Shown here: piece by piece, positions 20,290 to 31,314 of the stretch
Numbering within the stretch: the first letter of the stretch is position 1
Layout of the letters: the number at the start of each line of letters is the position of its first letter
NCBI RefSeq assembly: GCF_036507355.1
Contig: NZ_AP027877.1
Direction: 5' to 3' (one strand)
From: Escherichia coli
GTDB lineage: Bacteria > Pseudomonadota > Gammaproteobacteria > Enterobacterales > Enterobacteriaceae
DNA length: 64,000 nt
Notes under the pieces: generated by a model
Database searches by the model: none
Told to the model about the DNA's origin: nothing
What the model saw: only the letters and a program-made list of their open reading frames with translations
Made by a program: the position numbers and the translations under genes

Positions 20290-20440
20290 GCCCCTCCCGA
20301 GGAAGGGGCCATAAATAAGGAAAGGGTCATGATGAAGATACTCATCATCGTGGCGCTCTTAGTGATTAGCTACCCAGCATACTAAGACTACCAGGGCGGG
20401 GGAAACCCCGCTCTACCCTCACTCCTGAAAGTATGCCTTC
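20290..20440 (-). ncRNA. sib: Sib-family antisense sRNA (antitoxin) overlapping ibs copy 1; boundaries approximate
   Basis: By family knowledge Sib RNAs are about 140 nt and fully antisense to ibs; minus-strand hairpin GGCCCCTTCCTCGGGAGGGGC+TTTCCC at 20291-20320 is a candidate terminator. Confidence 0.45.
20329..20385 (+). CDS. ibs: Ibs-family type I toxin peptide (MMKILIIVALLVISYPAY)
   Basis: 18-aa hydrophobic peptide ORF with MMK start and RBS aagg, inside Sib/Ibs repeat unit. Confidence 0.8.
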   Translation: MMKILIIVALLVISYPAY

Positions 20441-20636
20441 ACGTTCAGAATGTCAATCCGCAGGCTTTGCAGTCTGCGATCCTGCCAGCAAATATTCTTT
20501 GCGAGACGTTACGCAATAATCACAGAGGAAACTATTTTGTTCACGCGTTAGCGATAGACTGAATTCAGGGCGAAAGGAGGTAAGCCGACGATTTCAGCGG
20601 GACGCTGAAACGGGAAAGCCCCTCCCGAGGAAGGGG

Positions 20637-21621: not shown

Positions 21622-22120
21622 TTAACGGACACTCCTTCCTGAAATAGAATGGCATCAGAAGGAGCTAATAATGAGCAGAAAAACCCAACGTTACTCTAAA
21701 GAGTTCAAAGCCGAAGCTGTCAGAACGGTTCTTGAAAATCAACTTTCGATCAGTGAAGGCGCTTCCCGATTATCTCTTCCTGAAGGCACTTTAGGACAAT
21801 GGGTTACCGCCGCCAGAAAAGGGCTCGGTACTCCTGGTTCCCGCACGGTGGCTGAACTGGAATCTGAAATTCTGCAACTGCGTAAGGCGTTAAATGAAGC
21901 TCGCCTTGAGCGAGATATATTAAAAAAAGCAACGTATTTTGCACAGGAGTCGCTGAAAAATACGCGTTAATCGAACAATGGCGACAACAATTTCCCATTG
22001 AAGCGATGTGTCAGGTATTTGGTGTATCCAGGAGCGGTTATTACAACTGGGTACAGCATGAACCCTCAGACAGAAAACAAAGTGATGAGCGGCTAAAACT
22101 GGAGATTAAGGTGGCACATA
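21610..22120 (+). mobile_element. IS3-family element, 5' fragment only (orfA plus first about 38 codons of orfB)
   Basis: orfA 21671-21970 plus orfB N-terminus MCQVFGVSRSGYYNWVQ... in -1 frame, homology lost after about 22118; boundaries approximate. Confidence 0.6.
21671..21970 (+). CDS. IS3-family transposase OrfA (HTH)
   Basis: 99-aa ORF MSRKTQRYSKEFKAEAVRTVLE...ERDILKKATYFAQE, typical IS3 OrfA with leucine zipper and A-run slippery site near 3' end. Confidence 0.8.
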   Translation: MSRKTQRYSKEFKAEAVRTVLENQLSISEGASRLSLPEGTLGQWVTAARKGLGTPGSRTVAELESEILQLRKALNEARLERDILKKATYFAQESLKNTR

Positions 22121-22149
22121 CGGTAACAAGCCGATACATGCCACACGCA

Positions 22150-22756
22150 TTACTCACCCTCTTTGATGCGAATGCCAGCGGCGCGTGGCACATTAACTTC
22201 CACGATGCGCACTGTTGGTTTGTACATCTCAATCGCTGTCAGCCAGTCAGCTCCTGTCATGCGCTTTTCCGCATCGCCATTAGTCCACTGAACCGGTACA
22301 CCAATAGCCTTCATCGCGATTTCTATTTCCCCGGCAATGGCGCTTTTTCCGCAACCAGTAAAACCAGAAACAACGACAAGAACTTCACCTTTGGCTGGTT
22401 TTATTTCCCGTGCTTCCAGTTCTGCAATGCGCTTACTTCCATCCGCGATTACTCCCTCGTAATATTCACGCTGCTCGTTGAGTTTTGATTTTGCTGCTTC
22501 AAGCTCAACTCTCAGCTTCCCTACCGTTAGCGCAATATCCTCGTTCTCCTGGTCACGGGATTTGATGTATTGCTGGTTTCTTTCCCGTTCATCCAGAAGC
22601 GCCAGCACGGTTGCCGGATTAGCCTTGGCAACAAAATCACGGACTGGCTTACAATCAATCTCAGCAATGGGTTGATACGATGTGTATCCATGCTGTCTTG
22701 TATAACTACCGTGACGAATAACGAAAAAATCACCATTTATTTTTTTAGCCTGCCAC
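22150..22756 (-). pseudogene. Phage-derived protein fragment with P-loop-like motif (GFTGCGKS); 5' end interrupted by IS1
   Basis: Reading frame runs into IS1 terminal bases at 22757; annotated start codon lies inside IS1. Confidence 0.5.
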
Positions 22757-22771
22757 GGTAATGACTCCAAC

Positions 22772-23275
22772 TTATTGATAGTGTTTTATGTTCAGATAAT
22801 GCCCGATGACTTTGTCATGCAGCTCCACCGATTTTGAGAACGACAGCGACTTCCGTCCCAGCCGTGCCAGGTGCTGCCTCAGATTCAGGTTATGCCGCTC
22901 AATTCGCTGCGTATATCGCTTGCTGATTACGTGCAGCTTTCCCTTCAGGCGGGATTCATACAGCGGCCAGCCATCCGTCATCCATATCACCACGTCAAAG
23001 GGTGACAGCAGGCTCATAAGACGCCCCAGCGTCGCCATCGTGCGTTCACCGAATACGTGCGCAACAACCGTCTTCCGGAGCCTGTCATACGCGTAAAACA
23101 GCCAGCGCTGGCGCGATTTAGCCCCGACATAGCCCCACTGTTCGTCCATTTCCGCGCAGACGATGACGTCACTGCCCGGCTGTATGCGCGAGGTTACCGA
23201 CTGCGGCCTGAGTTTTTTAAGTGACGTAAAATCGTGTTGAGGCCAACGCCCATAATGCGGGCTGTTGCCCGGCAT
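22772..23275 (-). CDS. insB: IS1 InsB
   Basis: 167-aa InsB ORF overlapping insA (frameshift fusion partner). Confidence 0.95.
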
Positions 23276-23469
23276 CCAACGCCATTCATGGCCATATCAA
23301 TGATTTTCTGGTGCGTACCGGGTTGAGAAGCGGTGTAAGTGAACTGCAGTTGCCATGTTTTACGGCAGTGAGAGCAGAGATAGCGCTGATGTCCGGCGGT
23401 GCTTTTGCCGTTACGCACCACCCCGTCAGTAGCTGAACAGGAGGGACAGCTGATAGAAACAGAAGCCAC
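23194..23469 (-). CDS. insA: IS1 InsA
   Basis: 91-aa [43 protein letters not shown]... Confidence 0.95.
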
Positions 23470-23548
23470 TGGAGCACCTCAAAAACACCATCATACACTA
23501 AATCAGTAAGTTGGCAGCATCACCGCCTGCCACGGTAATGACTCCAAC

Positions 23549-24052
23549 TTATTGATAGTGTTTTATGTTCAGATAATGCCCGATGACTTTGTCATGCAGC
23601 TCCACCGATTTTGAGAACGACAGCGACTTCCGTCCCAGCCGTGCCAGGTGCTGCCTCAGATTCAGGTTATGCCGCTCAATTCGCTGCGTATATCGCTTGC
23701 TGATTACGTGCAGCTTTCCCTTCAGGCGGGATTCATACAGCGGCCAGCCATCCGTCATCCATATCACCACGTCAAAGGGTGACAGCAGGCTCATAAGACG
23801 CCCCAGCGTCGCCATCGTGCGTTCACCGAATACGTGCGCAACAACCGTCTTCCGGAGCCTGTCATACGCGTAAAACAGCCAGCGCTGGCGCGATTTAGCC
23901 CCGACATAGCCCCACTGTTCGTCCATTTCCGCGCAGACGATGACGTCACTGCCCGGCTGTATGCGCGAGGTTACCGACTGCGGCCTGAGTTTTTTAAGTG
24001 ACGTAAAATCGTGTTGAGGCCAACGCCCATAATGCGGGCTGTTGCCCGGCAT
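23549..24052 (-). CDS. insB: IS1 InsB (copy 2)
   Basis: Identical to copy 1 InsB. Confidence 0.95.
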
Positions 24053-24246
24053 CCAACGCCATTCATGGCCATATCAATGATTTTCTGGTGCGTACCGGGT
24101 TGAGAAGCGGTGTAAGTGAACTGCAGTTGCCATGTTTTACGGCAGTGAGAGCAGAGATAGCGCTGATGTCCGGCGGTGCTTTTGCCGTTACGCACCACCC
24201 CGTCAGTAGCTGAACAGGAGGGACAGCTGATAGAAACAGAAGCCAC
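23971..24246 (-). CDS. insA: IS1 InsA (copy 2)
   Basis: Identical to copy 1 InsA. Confidence 0.95.
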
Positions 24247-24296
24247 TGGAGCACCTCAAAAACACCATCATACACTAAATCAGTAAGTTGGCAGCA

Positions 24297-25112
24297 TCAC
24301 CCTTCCTTGATTCTTTTTTCTTCTGCTATTCTGGCTTGCTCTTTTGCTTCAGCCTCGCGCCGGATTCGTTCAGCCTCCTCCTGTGCTTTTCTGCGTTCTG
24401 CTTCAATTGCTGCCTGCTTTTCTCTTTCAGCTCGTTCTGCTGCCTCTTTTGCTTCGCGCTGTGCTCTCTGCTCGGCTTCAATGCGTTCACGCTCTGCACG
24501 TTCCGCTGCGGCCTTAGCTTCTGCTTCTCGCCTTGCTGCTGCTTCAATTTCGGCTTTTGCCTTTGCTTCGGCTTCAGCTCTGGCTTTCTCTTCAGCTTCT
24601 CTTTTTAAGCGTTCTTCATGCTCTCGCTTTTCCTGCTCCGCTTTGAGTCTTGCCTCTTCTCTTTGGCGGTCAAATTCGCGATCCATCAAAATCGCTATTT
24701 CATGGTCAGACTCAATTTGCTTTGCGAGAGCTTCAGCTGCTGCCTTAGCTTCTTCTTCGGCTTTAATCCGCGCCTGTTCTTCCTCATAATCAGTAAGAGG
24801 CTGGCGCGCCTTGGCTTTCAGTTCATCAAGGCGATCGCGCACTGTCTTGCGGTTGGCATCAATTAGCTTTGGAATTTCCTTCAGTTCAGCAACAAGGTCT
24901 TTGCCAAGACCATCGAGATATGTTTTCGTCTGCGCAACTTTATACGCCAGAGAAGCGATCTCCTTTCTGCCCTTTGCCGTTGTGATATCAGGCACAAAGG
25001 ACATAACTTCACGTTCAACCTTTTGAAGGATTTCTTCAATCTGGTCGGCAGACTGAAATACAGTCATTGCATTTGCTTTTTCAATAACAACTAAATCTGT
25101 TACTTCACTCAT
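24297..25112 (-). CDS. Phage-associated coiled-coil protein with long K/E/A/R-rich repeat region; 3' end abuts IS1, stop codon created at junction
   Basis: ATG with strong RBS ggagga at 25112; low-complexity EAKAKAE/RREAEAK repeats; frame terminates using IS1 terminal bases. Confidence 0.55.
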   Translation of the reverse strand: MSEVTDLVVIEKANAMTVFQSADQIEEILQKVEREVMSFVPDITTAKGRKEIASLAYKVAQTKTYLDGLGKDLVAELKEIPKLIDANRKTVRDRLDELKAKARQPLTDYEEEQARIKAEEEAKAAAEALAKQIESDHEIAILMDREFDRQREEARLKAEQEKREHEERLKREAEEKARAEAEAKAKAEIEAAARREAEAKAAAERAERERIEAEQRAQREAKEAAERAEREKQAAIEAERRKAQEEAERIRREAEAKEQARIAEEKRIKEG

Positions 25113-25246
25113 ATATCCTCCATCAAAAAAATTGCCCTCACATCGGAGGGCAAAGAAGATTTCCAATAATCAGAACAAGTCGGCTCCTGTTTAGTTACGA
25201 GCGACATTGCTCCGTGTATTCACTCGTTGGAATGAATACACAGTGC

Positions 25247-25450
25247 TTATTCGCGAGCTTTGAGCATTGCGTCTGCAAACTTATATGCAGCGCTTGCTGC
25301 ATAATTAACAGCTCCATCAGAATCATTATCGATAATCGATGGATTGCTAATCATTGCTTGCATAGCCTTAGCAGCGAAGTAATCACGTAATGTCGCATCA
25401 CTTGCCATTTCTGGGCGTTTGATATCTGCTTCATAAAACTCGCACATCAT
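25247..25450 (-). CDS. Small hypothetical phage protein (67 aa)
   Basis: ORF with ATGATG start overlapping stop of an upstream fragment; no family assigned. Confidence 0.4.
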   Translation of the reverse strand: MMCEFYEADIKRPEMASDATLRDYFAAKAMQAMISNPSIIDNDSDGAVNYAASAAYKFADAMLKARE

Positions 25451-25617
25451 TCACCTCCCAGAGCCTTGCTGATTGCTGCAAGACCTTTATTAACAGCTCC
25501 ATACCATTCTGGATATGTTGTCGTTGTTCTATTTTTGGATTGCTTAAGTAATAACTGAAGTGCTTCGAGAAGGTCAGGTGCTGCCGCTATTAGATTGGCA
25601 TCTTCAATACATTGAAC
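25451..25617 (-). pseudogene. C-terminal fragment of a phage gene truncated by IS3-family element
   Basis: In-frame coding sequence ...DANLIAAAPDLLEALQLLLKQSKNRTTTTYPEWYGAVNKGLAAISKALGGE with stop overlapping next ATG; upstream continuation replaced by IS end at 25618. Confidence 0.4.
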
Positions 25618-25674
25618 TGAATCGCCACGGGTTTAACAGACACCTCAGAGTCATTTAAGATGGCTTAAAGAGAG

Positions 25675-27579: not shown

Positions 27580-29067
27580 TCACTGACAAATGTTTTTGTC
27601 AAAATCAACTACAATAATATCATCATATGAGTATAAGTTATATTCATATGCTCTTTTAATCTTTGCGGTTGAGCAAAAGGTTTTTTCATTTAACACACTT
27701 GCAATGTTTGTATTCCCAGGGTGTTTAAAGTAAACTCCAACTCTATTCATATAAGGGAATGGCCAATCCCAATTATAGAAATACTCTGGGAAAAATCTAG
27801 ATATTAACGGGTAATTATTTCGTGCGTTTACAAAAACATCATTGTCTTTCTTTTTACCATTAAAAATAAGTATCTGATTTGTTTTTCCGCTTAACTCGAA
27901 AGCATCATTTTTAATCTGATGAAACAGAACTGTGGTTATGTTTTTTTCTTCTGTCATTGCATTTGTGTATGAACATAAAAAACCAAAAACATAAATCAGA
28001 GGAATTACAAGTATATATGTTATTGAATTTTTTGTTTCTCGCGAGAAAAGATAAACAATCATGAATAAGAACAACATCGTAGCAGAAAAACCGATCATCA
28101 CTCTTGGGGCGTCGATGTGATGCTGAAGTGGTAATAGAGTAGCAAAAGACAATATCAAAGCTGTTACTGGCGATGTTATTGTAATTAAAAAATTAATAAT
28201 ACCAGTAATACTTTTATTAGGTATTAATTTCTTTAGCGCGATAAATGTCGTCATTGCAATGAAAAATAAAAATATTACTATAAACGCAACTCGTCCTGAT
28301 TCCCCAAAAATACCACTAGATATTGAATGAAGATAAAATTTTAAGTTTTCATATATAACTGAAAAAATGCCTTCAGTTTTAATTGATGGGTGATCCGGGT
28401 CCCCAACAACAGTTAAAAATAAAGGAATAACCACCAAAAAATATAATGCAACACCTATAACTAATGATACCGTCTTTTCTATGAGGTAAGTTAATAGATG
28501 TCTGTTACTATCTGAGTTAAAGTACATGTAAACATATTTACACAGAATAATAACCAGCATGAAATTTAATGATGCTTGGTATATAGACAATATAAATAAT
28601 GTTAACAGGGCGGCAAAAGAAATATTTAAAATTGTCTTTTTGAAATTAAATATTACAACTGAGAATGACAATGCAATACTCATGAACATCGGTAAAACAT
28701 CAAAGCGATACATTGCATTTTCAATTAAAAATGGGCTTGATAAAATACCAAGAGGAACCAACAGTCCAATAAATTTATTATCTGTCGATATAAACATCCT
28801 GCTAAAAAAATACAGGCAAACAGATATCAAAAATACTGATAATATTGCAGGAAATGGGAATAAGTCCGTTATGTGCATGTTGAAATTCAATGCAATCATC
28901 AACATTTCAGCCAAAGGTCTACCATCCCTAGCCCATCCAGTATACCCCCATATAGCTCTTCCCTGATCATCTACATAATGAATATTTGCCATGATGATGG
29001 GGGTGAAATATATAAAAACAGATATCAAGAACCAATGGAAAGGTGTTTTGTTTTTATTTGCAATCAT
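27580..29067 (-). CDS. GtrC-like type-specific O-antigen glucosyltransferase (polytopic membrane protein)
   Basis: 495-aa ORF, multiple TM helices, strongly AT-rich, immediately downstream of gtrB with overlapping stop/start. Confidence 0.7.
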
Positions 29068-29983
29068 TTTTCTGATCCTTTAAAACATATCTTGGGCGCT
29101 GCTTAACTTCAATATAAATACGTCCTATGTACTCTCCAAGTACACCAATACCAATTAGTTGTACGCCGCCAAGAAACAATATTGATACAAGAATTGAAGG
29201 GTATCCAGGTACATTATTACCAAAAATCAATTTATCAATTATCATCCATGAACCGTATGTAAATGATATACATGCAATAAATAACCCAATATAGGTCCAC
29301 ATGCGAAGCGGGAAAGTAGAAAAGCTAGTGATCCCTTCCAGCGCCAAGTTCCATAGCTTCCATCCATTGAACTTTGTGCTTCCTGCAACGCGTTCTGCTC
29401 GCGCATATTCTACGACATCGGTTCGACCACCAACCCAGCTCAGCACACCCTTCATAAACAGGTTTCGTTCTGGCATGAGCTTAATGTTTTCTACTACTTC
29501 GCGAGACATGAGCCGGAAGTCGCCAACATTCTCTTCTATCTGAGGGTTGCTGATTTTGTTATGAAGTTTATAGAACCACTCAGCAGATTTACGCTTCAGC
29601 CTGCTGTCAGTGGAGCGGTCAGAGCGTTTAGCCAGAACCATATCTGCACCGGCCTGCCATTTCTCTATCAAGTGAGGAATAACTTCGATAGGGTCTTGCA
29701 GATCAACGTCAATCGGGATAATTGCCTCCCCGGTAGCATGGTCCAGACCTGCGAACAGGGCGGGTTCTTTGCCGAAGTTACGTGTGAACGACAGCGAAAC
29801 CACAAGCGGGTCGGCAACAGCAAGCTCGTTGATAATTGATTCTGTAGCGTCTTTGCTGCCATCGTTTATGAAGACTATCTCGACTTCATGCTGCTGAAGC
29901 CCTTCAAATTCGCGCACGGTTTTATAAAAAATAGGTATCGTGGCCTCTTCGTTAAAGACCGGAACGACTAAAGAAATTTTCAT
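29054..29983 (-). CDS. gtrB: GtrB bactoprenol glucosyltransferase (GT2 family)
   Basis: 309-aa [16 protein letters not shown]...[10 protein letters not shown]...C-terminal TM helices; matches conserved GtrB. Confidence 0.9.
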
Positions 29984-30342
29984 TTCGCATCCCTAAAGAC
30001 AATGAACTTTGAATAGATGAAACCGCACACCAGGCTGATGGCGGAGAAGGTGACAAGAGTTATCATCGGGGGAAGTGCGCATCTATCAGCAGCCCATCCA
30101 ACAGTAGCACTGAGTGTTCCCATGAACCCGACATATAACATGTAGCGCATCGTTGTAGTTGATGCTTTGAATGTGAATTTTGCATTCGCGAAGAAGCTAA
30201 AACTCACAGCCACAACGAAACCTGCGAAGTTTGCCAGAGCCTGATTGGTATGCGCGGCATAGATACATACACCAAAAACCACCCAGTGTATAAGTGTGTT
30301 CAGCACACCAATCGAGGTGTACCTTGCAAATATATTTAACAT
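29980..30342 (-). CDS. gtrA: GtrA flippase (small 4-TM protein)
   Basis: 120-aa [31 protein letters not shown]...; overlaps gtrB start. Confidence 0.9.
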
Positions 30343-30685: not shown

Positions 30686-30697
30686 CCTTAAATAAGG
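30686..30697 (+). repeat. attR core: 12-bp direct repeat CCTTAAATAAGG
   Basis: Identical to 20637-20648; followed by aaagggtcATGATG of ibs. Confidence 0.7.
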
Positions 30698-30705
30698 AAA
30701 GGGTC

Positions 30706-30762
30706 ATGATGAAGTGGATCATCATCGTGGTGCTCTTAGTCATAAGCTTCCCGGCTTACTAA
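30706..30762 (+). CDS. ibs: Ibs-family type I toxin peptide (MMKWIIIVVLLVISFPAY), right half of the unit split by the island
   Basis: 18-aa hydrophobic ORF; upstream repeat-unit sequence replaced by island DNA. Confidence 0.75.
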   Translation: MMKWIIIVVLLVISFPAY

Positions 30763-30994
30763 GACTACCAGGGCGGGGGAAACCCCGCTCTACCCTCACT
30801 CCTGAAAGTATGCCTTCACGATAAGATTGTCAATCTGCAGGCTTTGCAGTCTGCGATCCTGCCAGCAAATATTCTTTGCGAGTCGTTACGCAATAATCAC
30901 AGAGGGAACTATTTTGTTCACGCGTTAGCGATAGACTGCATTCAGGGCGAAAGGAGGTAAGCCGACGATTTCAGCGGGACGCTGAAACGGGGAA

Positions 30995-31145
30995 CCCTCT
31001 CCCGGAGAAGAGGGCTTTTAATAAGGAAAGGGTTATGATGAAGCACGTCATCATACTGGTGATACTCTTAGTGATTAGCTTCCAGGCTTACTAAGAACAC
31101 CAGGGGGAGGGGGAAACCTCTCCCTAACCCTCACTCCTGAAATTA
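30995..31145 (-). ncRNA. sib: Sib-family antisense sRNA overlapping ibs copy 3; boundaries approximate
   Basis: Same unit architecture as 20290-20440, with hairpin gggaaccctctcccggagaagagggc upstream of the ibs RBS. Confidence 0.4.
31035..31094 (+). CDS. ibs: Ibs-family type I toxin peptide (MMKHVIILVILLVISFQAY)
   Basis: 19-aa hydrophobic ORF within complete repeat unit 3. Confidence 0.8.
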   Translation: MMKHVIILVILLVISFQAY

Positions 31146-31314
31146 TGTCACTCCGCCCTTAGTGTCAATCGACGGCTCTCCGTTCTTGCGAGGCGAATAG
31201 CAAAATTTTCTGCGCCGCCGGGACTAATTCTGAAAGTTTCTTCGTTTGCTCTTATTTCATTATTGCAGTCGGTATGATACCGGACCTTAATAATTCTCTA
31301 AGAAAGGATTTCTT

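Follow-up and report, generated by a model that had tools for sequence, protein, structure and literature searches.

An IS1-truncated copy of the Sf6 gene 33/phi80 agt/D3 orf53 family in an Escherichia coli prophage remnant, and the possible role of the intact protein

The 64,000-nucleotide stretch of Escherichia coli DNA analyzed here (the window) carries, at 24297-25112 on the minus strand, an open reading frame that is a 3′-truncated pseudogene and encodes an incomplete protein. The gene family behind it is already known, with Sf6 gene 33, HK544_037, phi80 agt (alias mog), Pseudomonas phage D3 orf53 and PHROG 1376 among its members. Our preferred reading, which we consider rather probable, joins this IS1-truncated family pseudogene to an intact protein that serves as an accessory factor of phage recombination modules, on the RecBCD/DNA-end axis.

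The truncated gene and its IS1 boundary

The locus comprises the following features, given in window coordinates:

22150-22755, minus strand: 5′-truncated Ead/Ea22-like gene (PF13935), natural stop kept
22757-23524, minus strand: IS1 copy A, identical to copy B at 768 of 768 positions
23534-24301, minus strand: IS1 copy B, 768 bp, whose terminal inverted repeat abuts the broken gene and gives the stop codon
24297-25112, minus strand: truncated copy of Sf6 gene 33/phi80 agt/D3 orf53, 271 aa plus stop
24302-25112, minus strand: native sequence of the ORF, with the DNA match to HK544 ending exactly at 24302
24302-24767, minus strand: middle motif DHEIAILMDREFDR, then the E/A/R/K-rich long helix (aa 116-270)
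24768-25112, minus strand: conserved N-terminal domain (aa 1-115), made up of two short helices and the beginning of the long one
25116-25121, minus strand: Shine-Dalgarno-like GGAGGA 5′ of the ATG, read from the sequence
25123-25153, minus strand: intrinsic terminator-like hairpin and T-run directly 5′ of the gene, matching the annotated tL2A of Sf6

The ORF called by the first-pass annotation is real, running from an ATG at 25112 to a stop at 24297-24299 over 271 aa behind the GGAGGA, and its setting is the prophage remnant described there, with an integrase fragment, IS elements and gtr genes. It is indeed a phage gene in a decayed prophage, encoding a long charged helical protein. That annotation had missed that the ORF is incomplete, its last codons and stop coming from IS1.

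Homology to HK544, Sf6 and Stx phages stops exactly at the IS1 boundary (24301), and both the TGA stop (24297-24299) and the last two bases of the Gly271 codon are of IS1 origin. Against Sf6 gp33 (322 aa), 269 of the 271 ORF residues are identical, with only the last two differing; DNA identity to HK544 is 98.6%, and the ORF matches PHROG 1376 at an E-value of 6e-83. Intact homologues are 322 aa long and finish with their own conserved C-terminal domain and stop. Because homology ends at IS1, which supplies the TGA, the conserved C-terminal ~50 aa are missing from the ORF: its helix is broken off ~15 residues short of the helix end, and the C-terminal ~45-aa domain is absent. The locus is therefore classed as a truncated pseudogene of the family. 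The N-domain retains the family-invariant residues D42, G48, R49, K63, G70 and K78, as well as D85, R88, L95, P105, E110 and R115. With its Sf6-type homologues (the Sf6 gene 33 protein AAQ12223, HK544_037 and those of mEp043 and CUS-3) the window copy shares 98-99% DNA identity, the tL2A terminator and the start site, but unlike them it is without the last ~52 codons and the downstream operon (cIII, kil and rec genes) and ends in IS1.

The two IS1 copies differ in their flanks. Copy A lies within a 9-bp direct repeat, GCCTGCCAC, at 22748-22756 and 23525-23533, and was therefore inserted flush against copy B. Copy B is flanked by GCCTGCCAC and CTTCCTTGA with no target duplication; as these flanks differ, it marks a deletion or rearrangement junction. 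No other piece of the gene 33 operon was found anywhere in the 64-kb window, and a context search of complete E. coli genomes, which returned many IS matches, gave none with the same arrangement. In an intact lambdoid phage the gene is driven from pL, after ral and the tL2 terminator, and lies just 5′ of cIII, kil and the recombination module. An IS1-associated deletion probably took the last ~52 codons of the gene together with the next 2-4 kb, including cIII, kil, the recombinase, the anti-RecBCD gene and more. What is left of the gene was thereby joined, with IS1 in between, to the 3′ end of an Ead/Ea22-like gene from the distal part of the same operon. The second, identical IS1 then inserted beside the first.

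As far as the sequence tells, the stump at 24297-25112 is most likely unexpressed or non-functional, since pL and N are absent, a terminator stands before the start codon and the C-terminal domain is gone. Neither pL nor N occurs in what remains of the DNA from the gene to the IS3-family element at 25651. The module downstream of the ORF is gone, with IS1 in its place, so that the ORF no longer sits in an early pL operon just 5′ of a recombination module. It is very unlikely that the host still produces an active 271-aa protein, say from an IS promoter reading outward, and keeps it for its own benefit. The open frame, the intact ribosome-binding site and the retention of the N-domain and most of the helix would fit such a product, but the conserved C-terminal domain is lost, the terminator is directly upstream, no promoter-like site was found on the coding strand of the retained upstream segment, the surrounding island is pieced together from gene fragments bounded by IS elements, and the exact 271-aa protein was found on just two assembly contigs, both under 2 kb.

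The neighboring ORF (22150-22756), which the first-pass annotation had linked to this one as the P-loop part of a single ATPase-coiled-coil protein, is the remnant of a different gene. It matches PF13935 at 93.3 bits (cut-off 27; E 2.6e-26), passing the Pfam cut-off as a member of the Ead/Ea22-like family (lambda ea22, phiV10p48), and is 94% identical to phiV10p48 over 162 aa, reaching the natural C-terminus. Unlike phiV10p48, the window copy is 5′-truncated by IS1 and its first 39 native residues are part of a different N-terminal module; the apparent TTG start and ‘MESL’ are IS1 terminal repeat. The Walker-A-like GFTGCGKS sits in the C-terminal 80 aa, with no Walker B and no NTPase-domain match, the best (AAA_16, APS kinase and similar; E 0.01-0.05) being far below cut-offs. 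Profile searches of the two fragments, as that annotation had proposed, return PHROG 1376 for the ORF and PF13935 rather than an ATPase for its neighbor.

The idea that the two ORFs are one SMC- or exclusion-type ATPase-coiled-coil protein split by IS1, which could draw on their shared minus strand with only IS1 copies between them and on the Walker-A-like motif with its sub-threshold kinase/AAA matches, is refuted, because the tandem IS1 pair replaces 2-4 kb of intervening phage genes. Intact homologues of the upstream gene end in a C-terminal domain and stop of their own, the downstream ORF follows phiV10p48 to its natural end, the P-loop-like module is just ~80 aa, and in intact phages the two are separate genes 2-4 kb apart with at least four genes between. 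For the exclusion, defense or structural role also suggested earlier, no evidence was found.

Architecture of the family and its charged helix

A search with the N-domain returned 4984 clusters at E ≤ 1e-3 and 3503 at E ≤ 1e-10, and about 10% of complete E. coli genomes carry a member. No Pfam model exists for the family; the ORF has no Pfam, NCBIfam or PADLOC match, and PHROG 1376 is labeled ‘unknown function’. The databases thus offer no validated function, in line with the first-pass annotation. Across family alignments A1, A2 and A4 a three-part architecture is conserved, with an N-terminal helical head, an E/A/R/K-rich helix and a conserved ~45-aa C-terminal mini-domain in the intact protein. 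The ~115-aa N-domain of the ORF carries the family motifs VPDxxTxKGR, SKTYLDGxGK and RxPLTxWE. Among 37 members the E/A/R/K linker varies from 133 to 241 aa, and the C-terminal domain (HRxxIN...GxxExxAK..V.AIA.G.I....I.Y) is found in 35 of the 37 when aligned.

The more distant members share this plan. phi80 (Lula) Agt/Mog (YP_007947961) is 322 aa long, shows 51% full-length identity to Sf6 gp33 (E 1e-64), and has the same three parts at the head of a rec module. The N-domain of D3 Orf53 is 55% identical to that of the window ORF (E 2e-38), and the protein has the same architecture, including the C-terminal motif, with its gene immediately 5′ of erf-exo; unlike the Sf6-type proteins, it has an extra ~60-aa insertion after the N-domain.

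The first-pass annotation had described a globular N-terminal region of about 100 aa. A distinct region of ~115 aa does exist, but it is not predicted to be a separate globule: in AlphaFold2 models, made for the whole protein and for the N-domain (pLDDT 92.9), short helices at residues 12-20 and 22-38 pack on the base of a very long helix that begins at residue 46. Likewise, of the ~170 aa of near-perfect K/E/A/R heptads described there, a segment of ~155 aa rich in E, A, R and K is confirmed and the heptads are not, as hydrophobic periodicity is absent at both 3.5 (z +0.7) and 7 residues (z -0.9). Hydrophobic residues make up ~1 per 20 aa of the charged segment, and median hydrophobic a/d occupancy in the best register is 0.125, which is not that of a canonical heptad coiled coil. 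The accompanying GAAGC/GCTTC signature in the DNA is real, with 12 copies of GCTTC in 24302-24800 against 0.7 expected from the window-wide frequency. This excess is due to GAA-GCN (Glu-Ala) codons on the coding strand; Tandem Repeats Finder reports only a weak 6-nt period with 61% matches.

In composition (E 29%, A 26%, R 18% and K 12% over aa 150-285 of an intact homologue), the charged segment resembles ER/K single α-helix domains or TolA domain II, and as in both its length differs among homologues. Like ER/K helices it has almost no hydrophobic residues and an excess of opposite-charge pairs at i+3/i+4 (76 against 49.7 ± 5.1 expected; z +5.2). Unlike them, it contains 26% alanine with a periodicity of 11/3 residues (z +4.4), which could make a small-residue seam for pairing. 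If continuous, the helix of the intact protein could, on the model, reach ~37 nm. A hairpin implied by a break in the AlphaFold2 model at residues 183-192 was given no weight, pLDDT there being 47 and the segment containing no helix-breaking residues.

Most members are named ‘cell envelope biogenesis protein TolA’ by NCBI, a misleading name that arises because the charged segment resembles TolA domain II in its E/A/K-rich composition. That the family is in fact a TolA-like cell-envelope protein is almost certainly wrong, given that there is no membrane anchor (maximum Kyte-Doolittle 19-residue mean of 1.03 for Sf6 gp33; family median 1.01), no match to TolA or any other Pfam/NCBIfam model and so no TolA domain III, a phage-borne gene placed in the early left operon beside recombination genes, and PDB sequence matches confined to charged helices of other proteins, zuotin and Mediator among them.

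A resemblance of the N-domain to DUF1351 (PF07083)/Gp157 was considered. This candidate was dropped when neither five N-domains and five C-domains, searched at E ≤ 10, nor the 37 members gave a match to these Pfam families; what the family shares with DUF1351 is an analogous gene position only. A Foldseek search against the PDB gave nothing at E < 1, a structure search of BFVD returned family members only, and sequence and profile searches of the PDB produced compositional matches to charged helices only.

Gene order in phage recombination modules

The family gene almost always directly precedes a recombinase gene of the RecT, Erf or Sak4 type. One scan of viral contigs covered near-identical E. 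coli-type loci only, and another took D3 Orf53 as its reference. Among 80 E. coli-type loci, cIII is the next gene in 79 and abc2 is present in 67, while an Ea22-like gene follows on the same strand 2.0-4.1 kb downstream in 33. The genes between gene 33 and the Ea22-like gene are cIII, kil, a recombinase and abc2, in agreement with annotated genomes. The first-pass annotation had suggested looking for intact homologues with the coiled-coil and P-loop parts contiguous; at this spacing they are two separate genes. Of 80 Pseudomonas-type loci, 36 have a RecT gene and 5 an Erf gene 11-14 nt downstream. In another 22 a YqaJ exonuclease stands at about +770 nt; the gap before it was scanned in one of these and holds Erf there, as it does in annotated D3. 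An AAA_24/Sak4 gene follows at a distance of 150-180 nt in two others. [quoted passage not shown]

Individual phages follow the same scheme. The order is gene-gamL-recT/bet-exo in phi80 and Klebsiella phage Mulock, gene-bet in Acinetobacter phage TCUAN1, and orf53-erf-exo in D3. phi80 agt directly precedes gamL-recT-exo, whereas the Sf6-type allele is followed by cIII-kil, next by erf, sak4 or recT, and then by abc2. The family gene occupies the position that gam has in gam-bet-exo type modules. Many E. coli-type phages carry it alongside abc2 or gam, so that the family does not simply substitute for these genes. lambda Gam, phi80 GamL, P22 Abc2 and Mu Gam show no sequence or fold similarity to the family protein, which has three times their length and is often encoded alongside one of them. 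The searched passages of a 2025 survey of lambdoid Rec modules make no mention of the family.

A possible role of the intact protein on the RecBCD/DNA-end axis

Genetic information on the intact protein comes from phi80 and D3. In GenBank NC_021190, phi80 agt is annotated as ‘anti-toxin for Gam; Mog (modifier of Gam)’ and gamL as ‘toxic without Mog’. D3 orf53 was shown in Pseudomonas to be one of three redundant factors that license Gabija targeting, a phenotype common to Orf53, Mu Gam and Exo-Erf; it acts in trans and also on other phages, a recB defect gives the same phenotype, and the effect has been put down to the exclusion of RecBCD from DNA ends (Hong et al. 2025, PMC12407980). The two hints partly diverge, with restraint of Gam in phi80 versus RecBCD-antagonist-like action in D3. 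Under our preferred reading of an accessory factor, the intact protein would either keep RecBCD off phage DNA ends itself or tune a phage Gam-type RecBCD inhibitor, and its charged helix may act as a rigid spacer between the two terminal domains.

A more far-reaching claim, which we hold tentatively, is that the intact family is an unrecognized and very widespread rod-shaped (up to ~35-40 nm) phage factor controlling RecBCD access to DNA ends, with DNA ends, RecBCD or Gam-type inhibitors as the putative binding partners of the N-terminal head and the small C-terminal domain. If this is true, the family would explain why Gabija-like end-sensing defenses see some phages, and the stump in the window, having the head and most of the rod, could keep partial activity.

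Two other explanations of the gene order and genetics have to be weighed. The family could be a structural tether or mediator for recombinase and exonuclease that recruits the SSAP to the replisome, the nucleoid or DNA ends and is not directly related to RecBCD. The tight, often near-overlapping linkage to three unrelated SSAP families and the AlphaFold2 picture of a rod-like spacer between two small domains are consistent with this, as is the filling of the same slot in Firmicute phages by other unknown proteins (DUF1351, Gp157 and Mu Gam-like; PMC8093625). We nevertheless find it doubtful, in that D3 orf53 licenses Gabija independently of Exo-Erf (PMC12407980) and a single near-identical allele occurs alongside SSAPs of different types, which speaks against a specific partner among them. 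Alternatively, the family could be an antitoxin or chaperone for Gam-type RecBCD inhibitors with no activity of its own on RecBCD or DNA ends, as the wording of the phi80 annotations for agt and gamL and the adjacency of the gene to gamL in phi80 and Mulock would suggest. This we judge unlikely: most members are without a recognized Gam or GamL, for example the D3-type and the Sf6/HK544 types with abc2, and D3 orf53 alone suffices in trans for Gabija licensing (PMC12407980).

For the locus itself, the finding is mainly corrective: IS1 has left the ORF as a dead-end fragment, the split-ATPase reading is wrong, and the public name ‘TolA’ is an artefact of composition. Of greater interest than the locus is the family from which the fragment comes, with its thousands of clusters and a gene placed almost always immediately 5′ of the gene for a phage recombinase, of whichever family. 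Gam toxicity in phi80 and Gabija licensing in D3 are two independent genetic hints that place it in the contest over RecBCD and DNA ends, and the intact Sf6 or phi80 protein may turn out to be a new component of the recombination and anti-RecBCD modules of phages.

Truncation of a phage gene by IS1

The window ORF is almost certainly an IS1-truncated copy of a known phage gene, the family of Sf6 gene 33, phi80 agt and D3 orf53 (PHROG 1376). The features of the locus are as follows.

ATG 25112 to TGA 24297-24299, minus strand: window ORF, 271 aa, with GGAGGA just 5′ of the ATG
25153-25132 plus T-run: tL2A-like terminator, directly 5′ of the window ORF start
22757-23524: IS1 copy A, same orientation as copy B and identical to it at 768/768 positions
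23534-24301: IS1 copy B, same orientation as copy A, with unlike flanks

A longer, TTG-initiated version of the ORF, to 25166, appears in a mechanical ORF listing; the start annotated for every phage homologue corresponds to ATG 25112. The product consists of a conserved N-terminal part of ~115 aa and an E/A/R/K-dominated segment, and its residues 1-269 are identical to the 322-aa gene 33 protein of Shigella phage Sf6. DNA identity of the region to phage HK544 (98.6%), Sf6 and an Stx1a phage stops exactly at 24302-24304. The IS1 terminal inverted repeat (GGTGATGCTGCCAACTTACTGAT, minus strand) runs leftwards from 24301, and the stop codon with the final two bases of codon 271 lies inside it. 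Elsewhere within the 64-kb window we found none of the rest of the HK544/Sf6-type operon (gene 33-type 3′ end, cIII, kil, erf, abc2). The gene was already known from many phage genomes and has names in phi80 and D3; the ORF is a nearly identical but damaged copy of it, and the locus is one of ordinary IS-mediated prophage decay. Judged from its sequence, the window copy is most likely inert, since the conserved C-terminal domain is lost, the upstream segment kept in the window (which runs to an IS3-family element at 25651) lacks pL and N, the terminator precedes the start, and no coding-strand promoter-like site was found in that segment.

The two IS1 copies form a direct tandem (22748-24301), are 100% identical and have 9 bp between them (GCCTGCCAC). 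These 9 bp recur on the other side of copy A (22748-56 and 23525-33), an ordinary target duplication showing that copy A inserted directly at the end of copy B. The flanks of copy B are unlike and mark a junction formed by deletion or rearrangement; the two outer flanks of the tandem do not match either.

Other remnants surround the locus. Upstream of the window ORF (25247-25450 and 25445-25618 region) is a 67-aa ORF matching the C-terminal part of PHROG 2201 alone (profile positions 156-215 of 226); the DNA beside it is 94% identical to phage APC_JM3.2, and this stretch, cut by the IS3-family element at ~25651, is probably another gene stump. Three copies of the SIB RNA (ibs/sib toxin-antitoxin; 20314-20456, 30691-30833 and 31020-31168) flank a ~10-kb island of an integrase fragment, IS elements, phage gene stumps and a gtr cluster, which suggests prophage integration within or beside the sib repeats that lie upstream of mdtA. 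The O-antigen glucosylation cluster (27580-30342) has the order gtrA-gtrB-gtr (type-specific, 495 aa). Identity of its gtrA and gtrB to the counterparts in known serotype-converting phages of Shigella and E. coli is just ~81%, so the cluster may represent a separate gtr variant.

The Ea22-like neighbour and gene order in intact phages

The first-pass annotation had proposed that the window ORF and an adjacent P-loop fragment (GFTGCGKS) are the remains of one ATPase-coiled-coil protein. This is contradicted both by the identity of the neighbour and by the separation of the two genes in intact phages. ORF 22150-22770, in which IS1 sequence supplies the first four residues and the apparent TTG start, matches Ead_Ea22 (Pfam PF13935, E 2.6e-26). 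Over residues 40-201 it aligns at 94% identity with phiV10p48 residues 71-232, reaching the natural C-terminus of that protein, so that GFTGCGKS belongs to a C-terminal module of ~80 aa in a complete Ea22-type protein. Kinase/AAA matches of the module were all sub-threshold.

In intact phage loci the homologues are two unrelated genes, neighbours in one leftward operon but far apart within it, with eight genes between them in APC_JM3.2 and ten in the Stx1a phage (cIII, kil, gam, bet and exo among these). Across 80 E. coli-type loci, cIII is directly downstream of the gene 33-type gene in 79, with kil in 77, abc2 in 67 and a recombinase in 43, the last count being those recognised by our own reference set. 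An Ea22-like gene follows 2.0-4.1 kb downstream (median 2.8 kb) in 33/80, on the same strand in all 29 checked (those of the 33 matching the APC_JM3.2 Ea22 reference). The window arrangement therefore reflects deletion of the interval and no split gene.

The Walker-A-like GFTGCGKS of the Ea22-like stump is perfect, and the C-terminal ~80 aa around it (22150-22400) are too few to make up an NTPase domain; this module has its own PHROG (11761) and is 94% conserved in phiV10p48. An IS600-like (IS3 family) element at 21671-22125, with orfA intact and orfB truncated after ~40 codons, adjoins the 3′ end of the stump, which thus has IS sequence on either side.

A three-part family with a charged helix

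The GAAGC/GCTTC signature reported for the charged region is real, with 12 occurrences of GCTTC between 24302 and 24800 where 0.7 would be expected. Tandem Repeats Finder detected a weak 6-nt period and nothing else, and this period reflects Glu-Ala codon pairs. The heptad-like repeats described for the same segment were not borne out: within the E/A/R/K core, which covers aa 150-285 of the intact protein, about one residue in 20 is hydrophobic, with no periodicity at 3.5 (z +0.7) or 7 residues (z −0.9) and a median a/d occupancy of 0.125 in the best register. Opposite-charge i+3/i+4 pairs are in excess (76 versus 49.7 ± 5.1, z +5.2) and alanine shows an 11/3-residue periodicity (z +4.4), a signature like that of ER/K-type single helices and TolA domain II and unlike that of a heptad coiled coil. 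The alanine stripe might mediate pairing. AlphaFold2 models the intact protein with helices 46-183 and 190-295; a hairpin at the break between them was not adopted, given its low confidence (pLDDT 47) and the lack of a helix breaker there. If continuous, the charged helix would be ~37 nm long, and the linker varies from 133 to 241 aa in 37 homologues, as expected of a spacer.

Alignments divide the family into three conserved parts: an N-domain (invariant D42, G48, R49, K63, G70, K78, D85, R88, L95, P105, E110 and R115), the variable helix, and a ~45-aa C-terminal domain (HRxxIN...GxxExxAKxxVxAIAxGxIxxVxIxY) present in 35/37 aligned members. In the confident N-domain model (pLDDT 92.9), two helices (12-20 and 22-38) rest on the base of the long one, and structure searches with this model returned no informative neighbour. 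The family alignments separate a subtype with a short conserved DHE(I/M)ALLMNxxFDR motif after the N-domain (Sf6, phi80) from one with a ~60-aa insertion there, carrying conserved W..EF...A...K and ExAEL.RLR (D3, TCUAN1). In phage CUS-3 (CUS-3 locus, 1290-2259) the same gene is frameshift-split into 116-aa and 214-aa ORFs, which is why each half has a PHROG of its own (17211 and 21365).

An N-domain search gave 4984 50%-identity clusters at E ≤ 1e-3 and 3503 at E ≤ 1e-10, with phage hosts including Escherichia, Shigella, Salmonella, Klebsiella, Yersinia, Erwinia, Pseudomonas, Acinetobacter, Vibrio, Shewanella and Aeromonas; the Sf6-type allele occurs in 529/5426 complete E. coli genomes. The family matches no model in Pfam, NCBIfam or PADLOC, and PHROG 1376 is annotated 'unknown function'. 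Most members are named 'cell envelope biogenesis protein TolA' at NCBI, a compositional artefact, as the family has neither membrane anchor nor TolA domain and its genes sit in phage early operons.

Recombination modules and a possible role

Across hosts the family gene heads a recombination module. The order is orf53, erf, YqaJ exonuclease in D3; gene, gamL, recT/bet, exo in phi80 and Klebsiella phage Mulock; gene, bet in Acinetobacter phage TCUAN1; erf, exo, small ORF, gene in Vibrio phage phiV208; and gene, cIII, kil, then erf, sak4, recT or gam-bet-exo in Sf6, HK544, APC_JM3.2 and Stx phages. Among 80 Pseudomonas-type loci, the family gene is followed after 11-14 nt by RecT in 36. Erf is next in at least 27, 5 directly and 22 via a YqaJ exonuclease at ~+770 nt, where Erf in the gap is supported by one scanned locus and the annotated D3; AAA_24/Sak4 lies 150-180 nt downstream in 2. 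[quoted passage not shown] Tight linkage of the gene thus extends to three recombinase superfamilies that are unrelated to each other, and compared with lambda gam-bet-exo the gene fills the gam slot in many modules.

Functional evidence comes from two homologues. In phi80 (GenBank NC_021190), agt, whose product shares 51% full-length identity with Sf6 gp33, is annotated 'anti-toxin for Gam; Mog (modifier of Gam)', and the next gene, gamL, 'toxic without Mog'. D3 orf53, with an N-domain 55% identical to that of the window ORF, is one of three redundant factors, with Exo-Erf and gp66, that make phage DNA a Gabija target; in trans it re-sensitised escape mutants of D3 and JBD30, it lowered the transduction of a plasmid on which it was carried, and Gabija escape requires host RecB; the authors concluded that licensing factors keep linear DNA ends free of RecBCD (Hong et al. 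2025, PMC12407980). Passages of a 2025 survey of lambdoid Rec modules give the anti-RecBCD types as Gam, GamL, Abc2 and Mu Gam, and the gene 33 family is not mentioned in those passages. The intact protein could thus be a recombination-module accessory on the RecBCD/DNA-end axis, a reading to which we give an even chance. It would either exclude RecBCD from phage ends or modulate the phage's Gam-type inhibitor, with the charged helix serving as a rigid spacer joining the two terminal domains. The interest of the locus lies in this parent family, which is large, without a Pfam model, mis-named and open to experiment.
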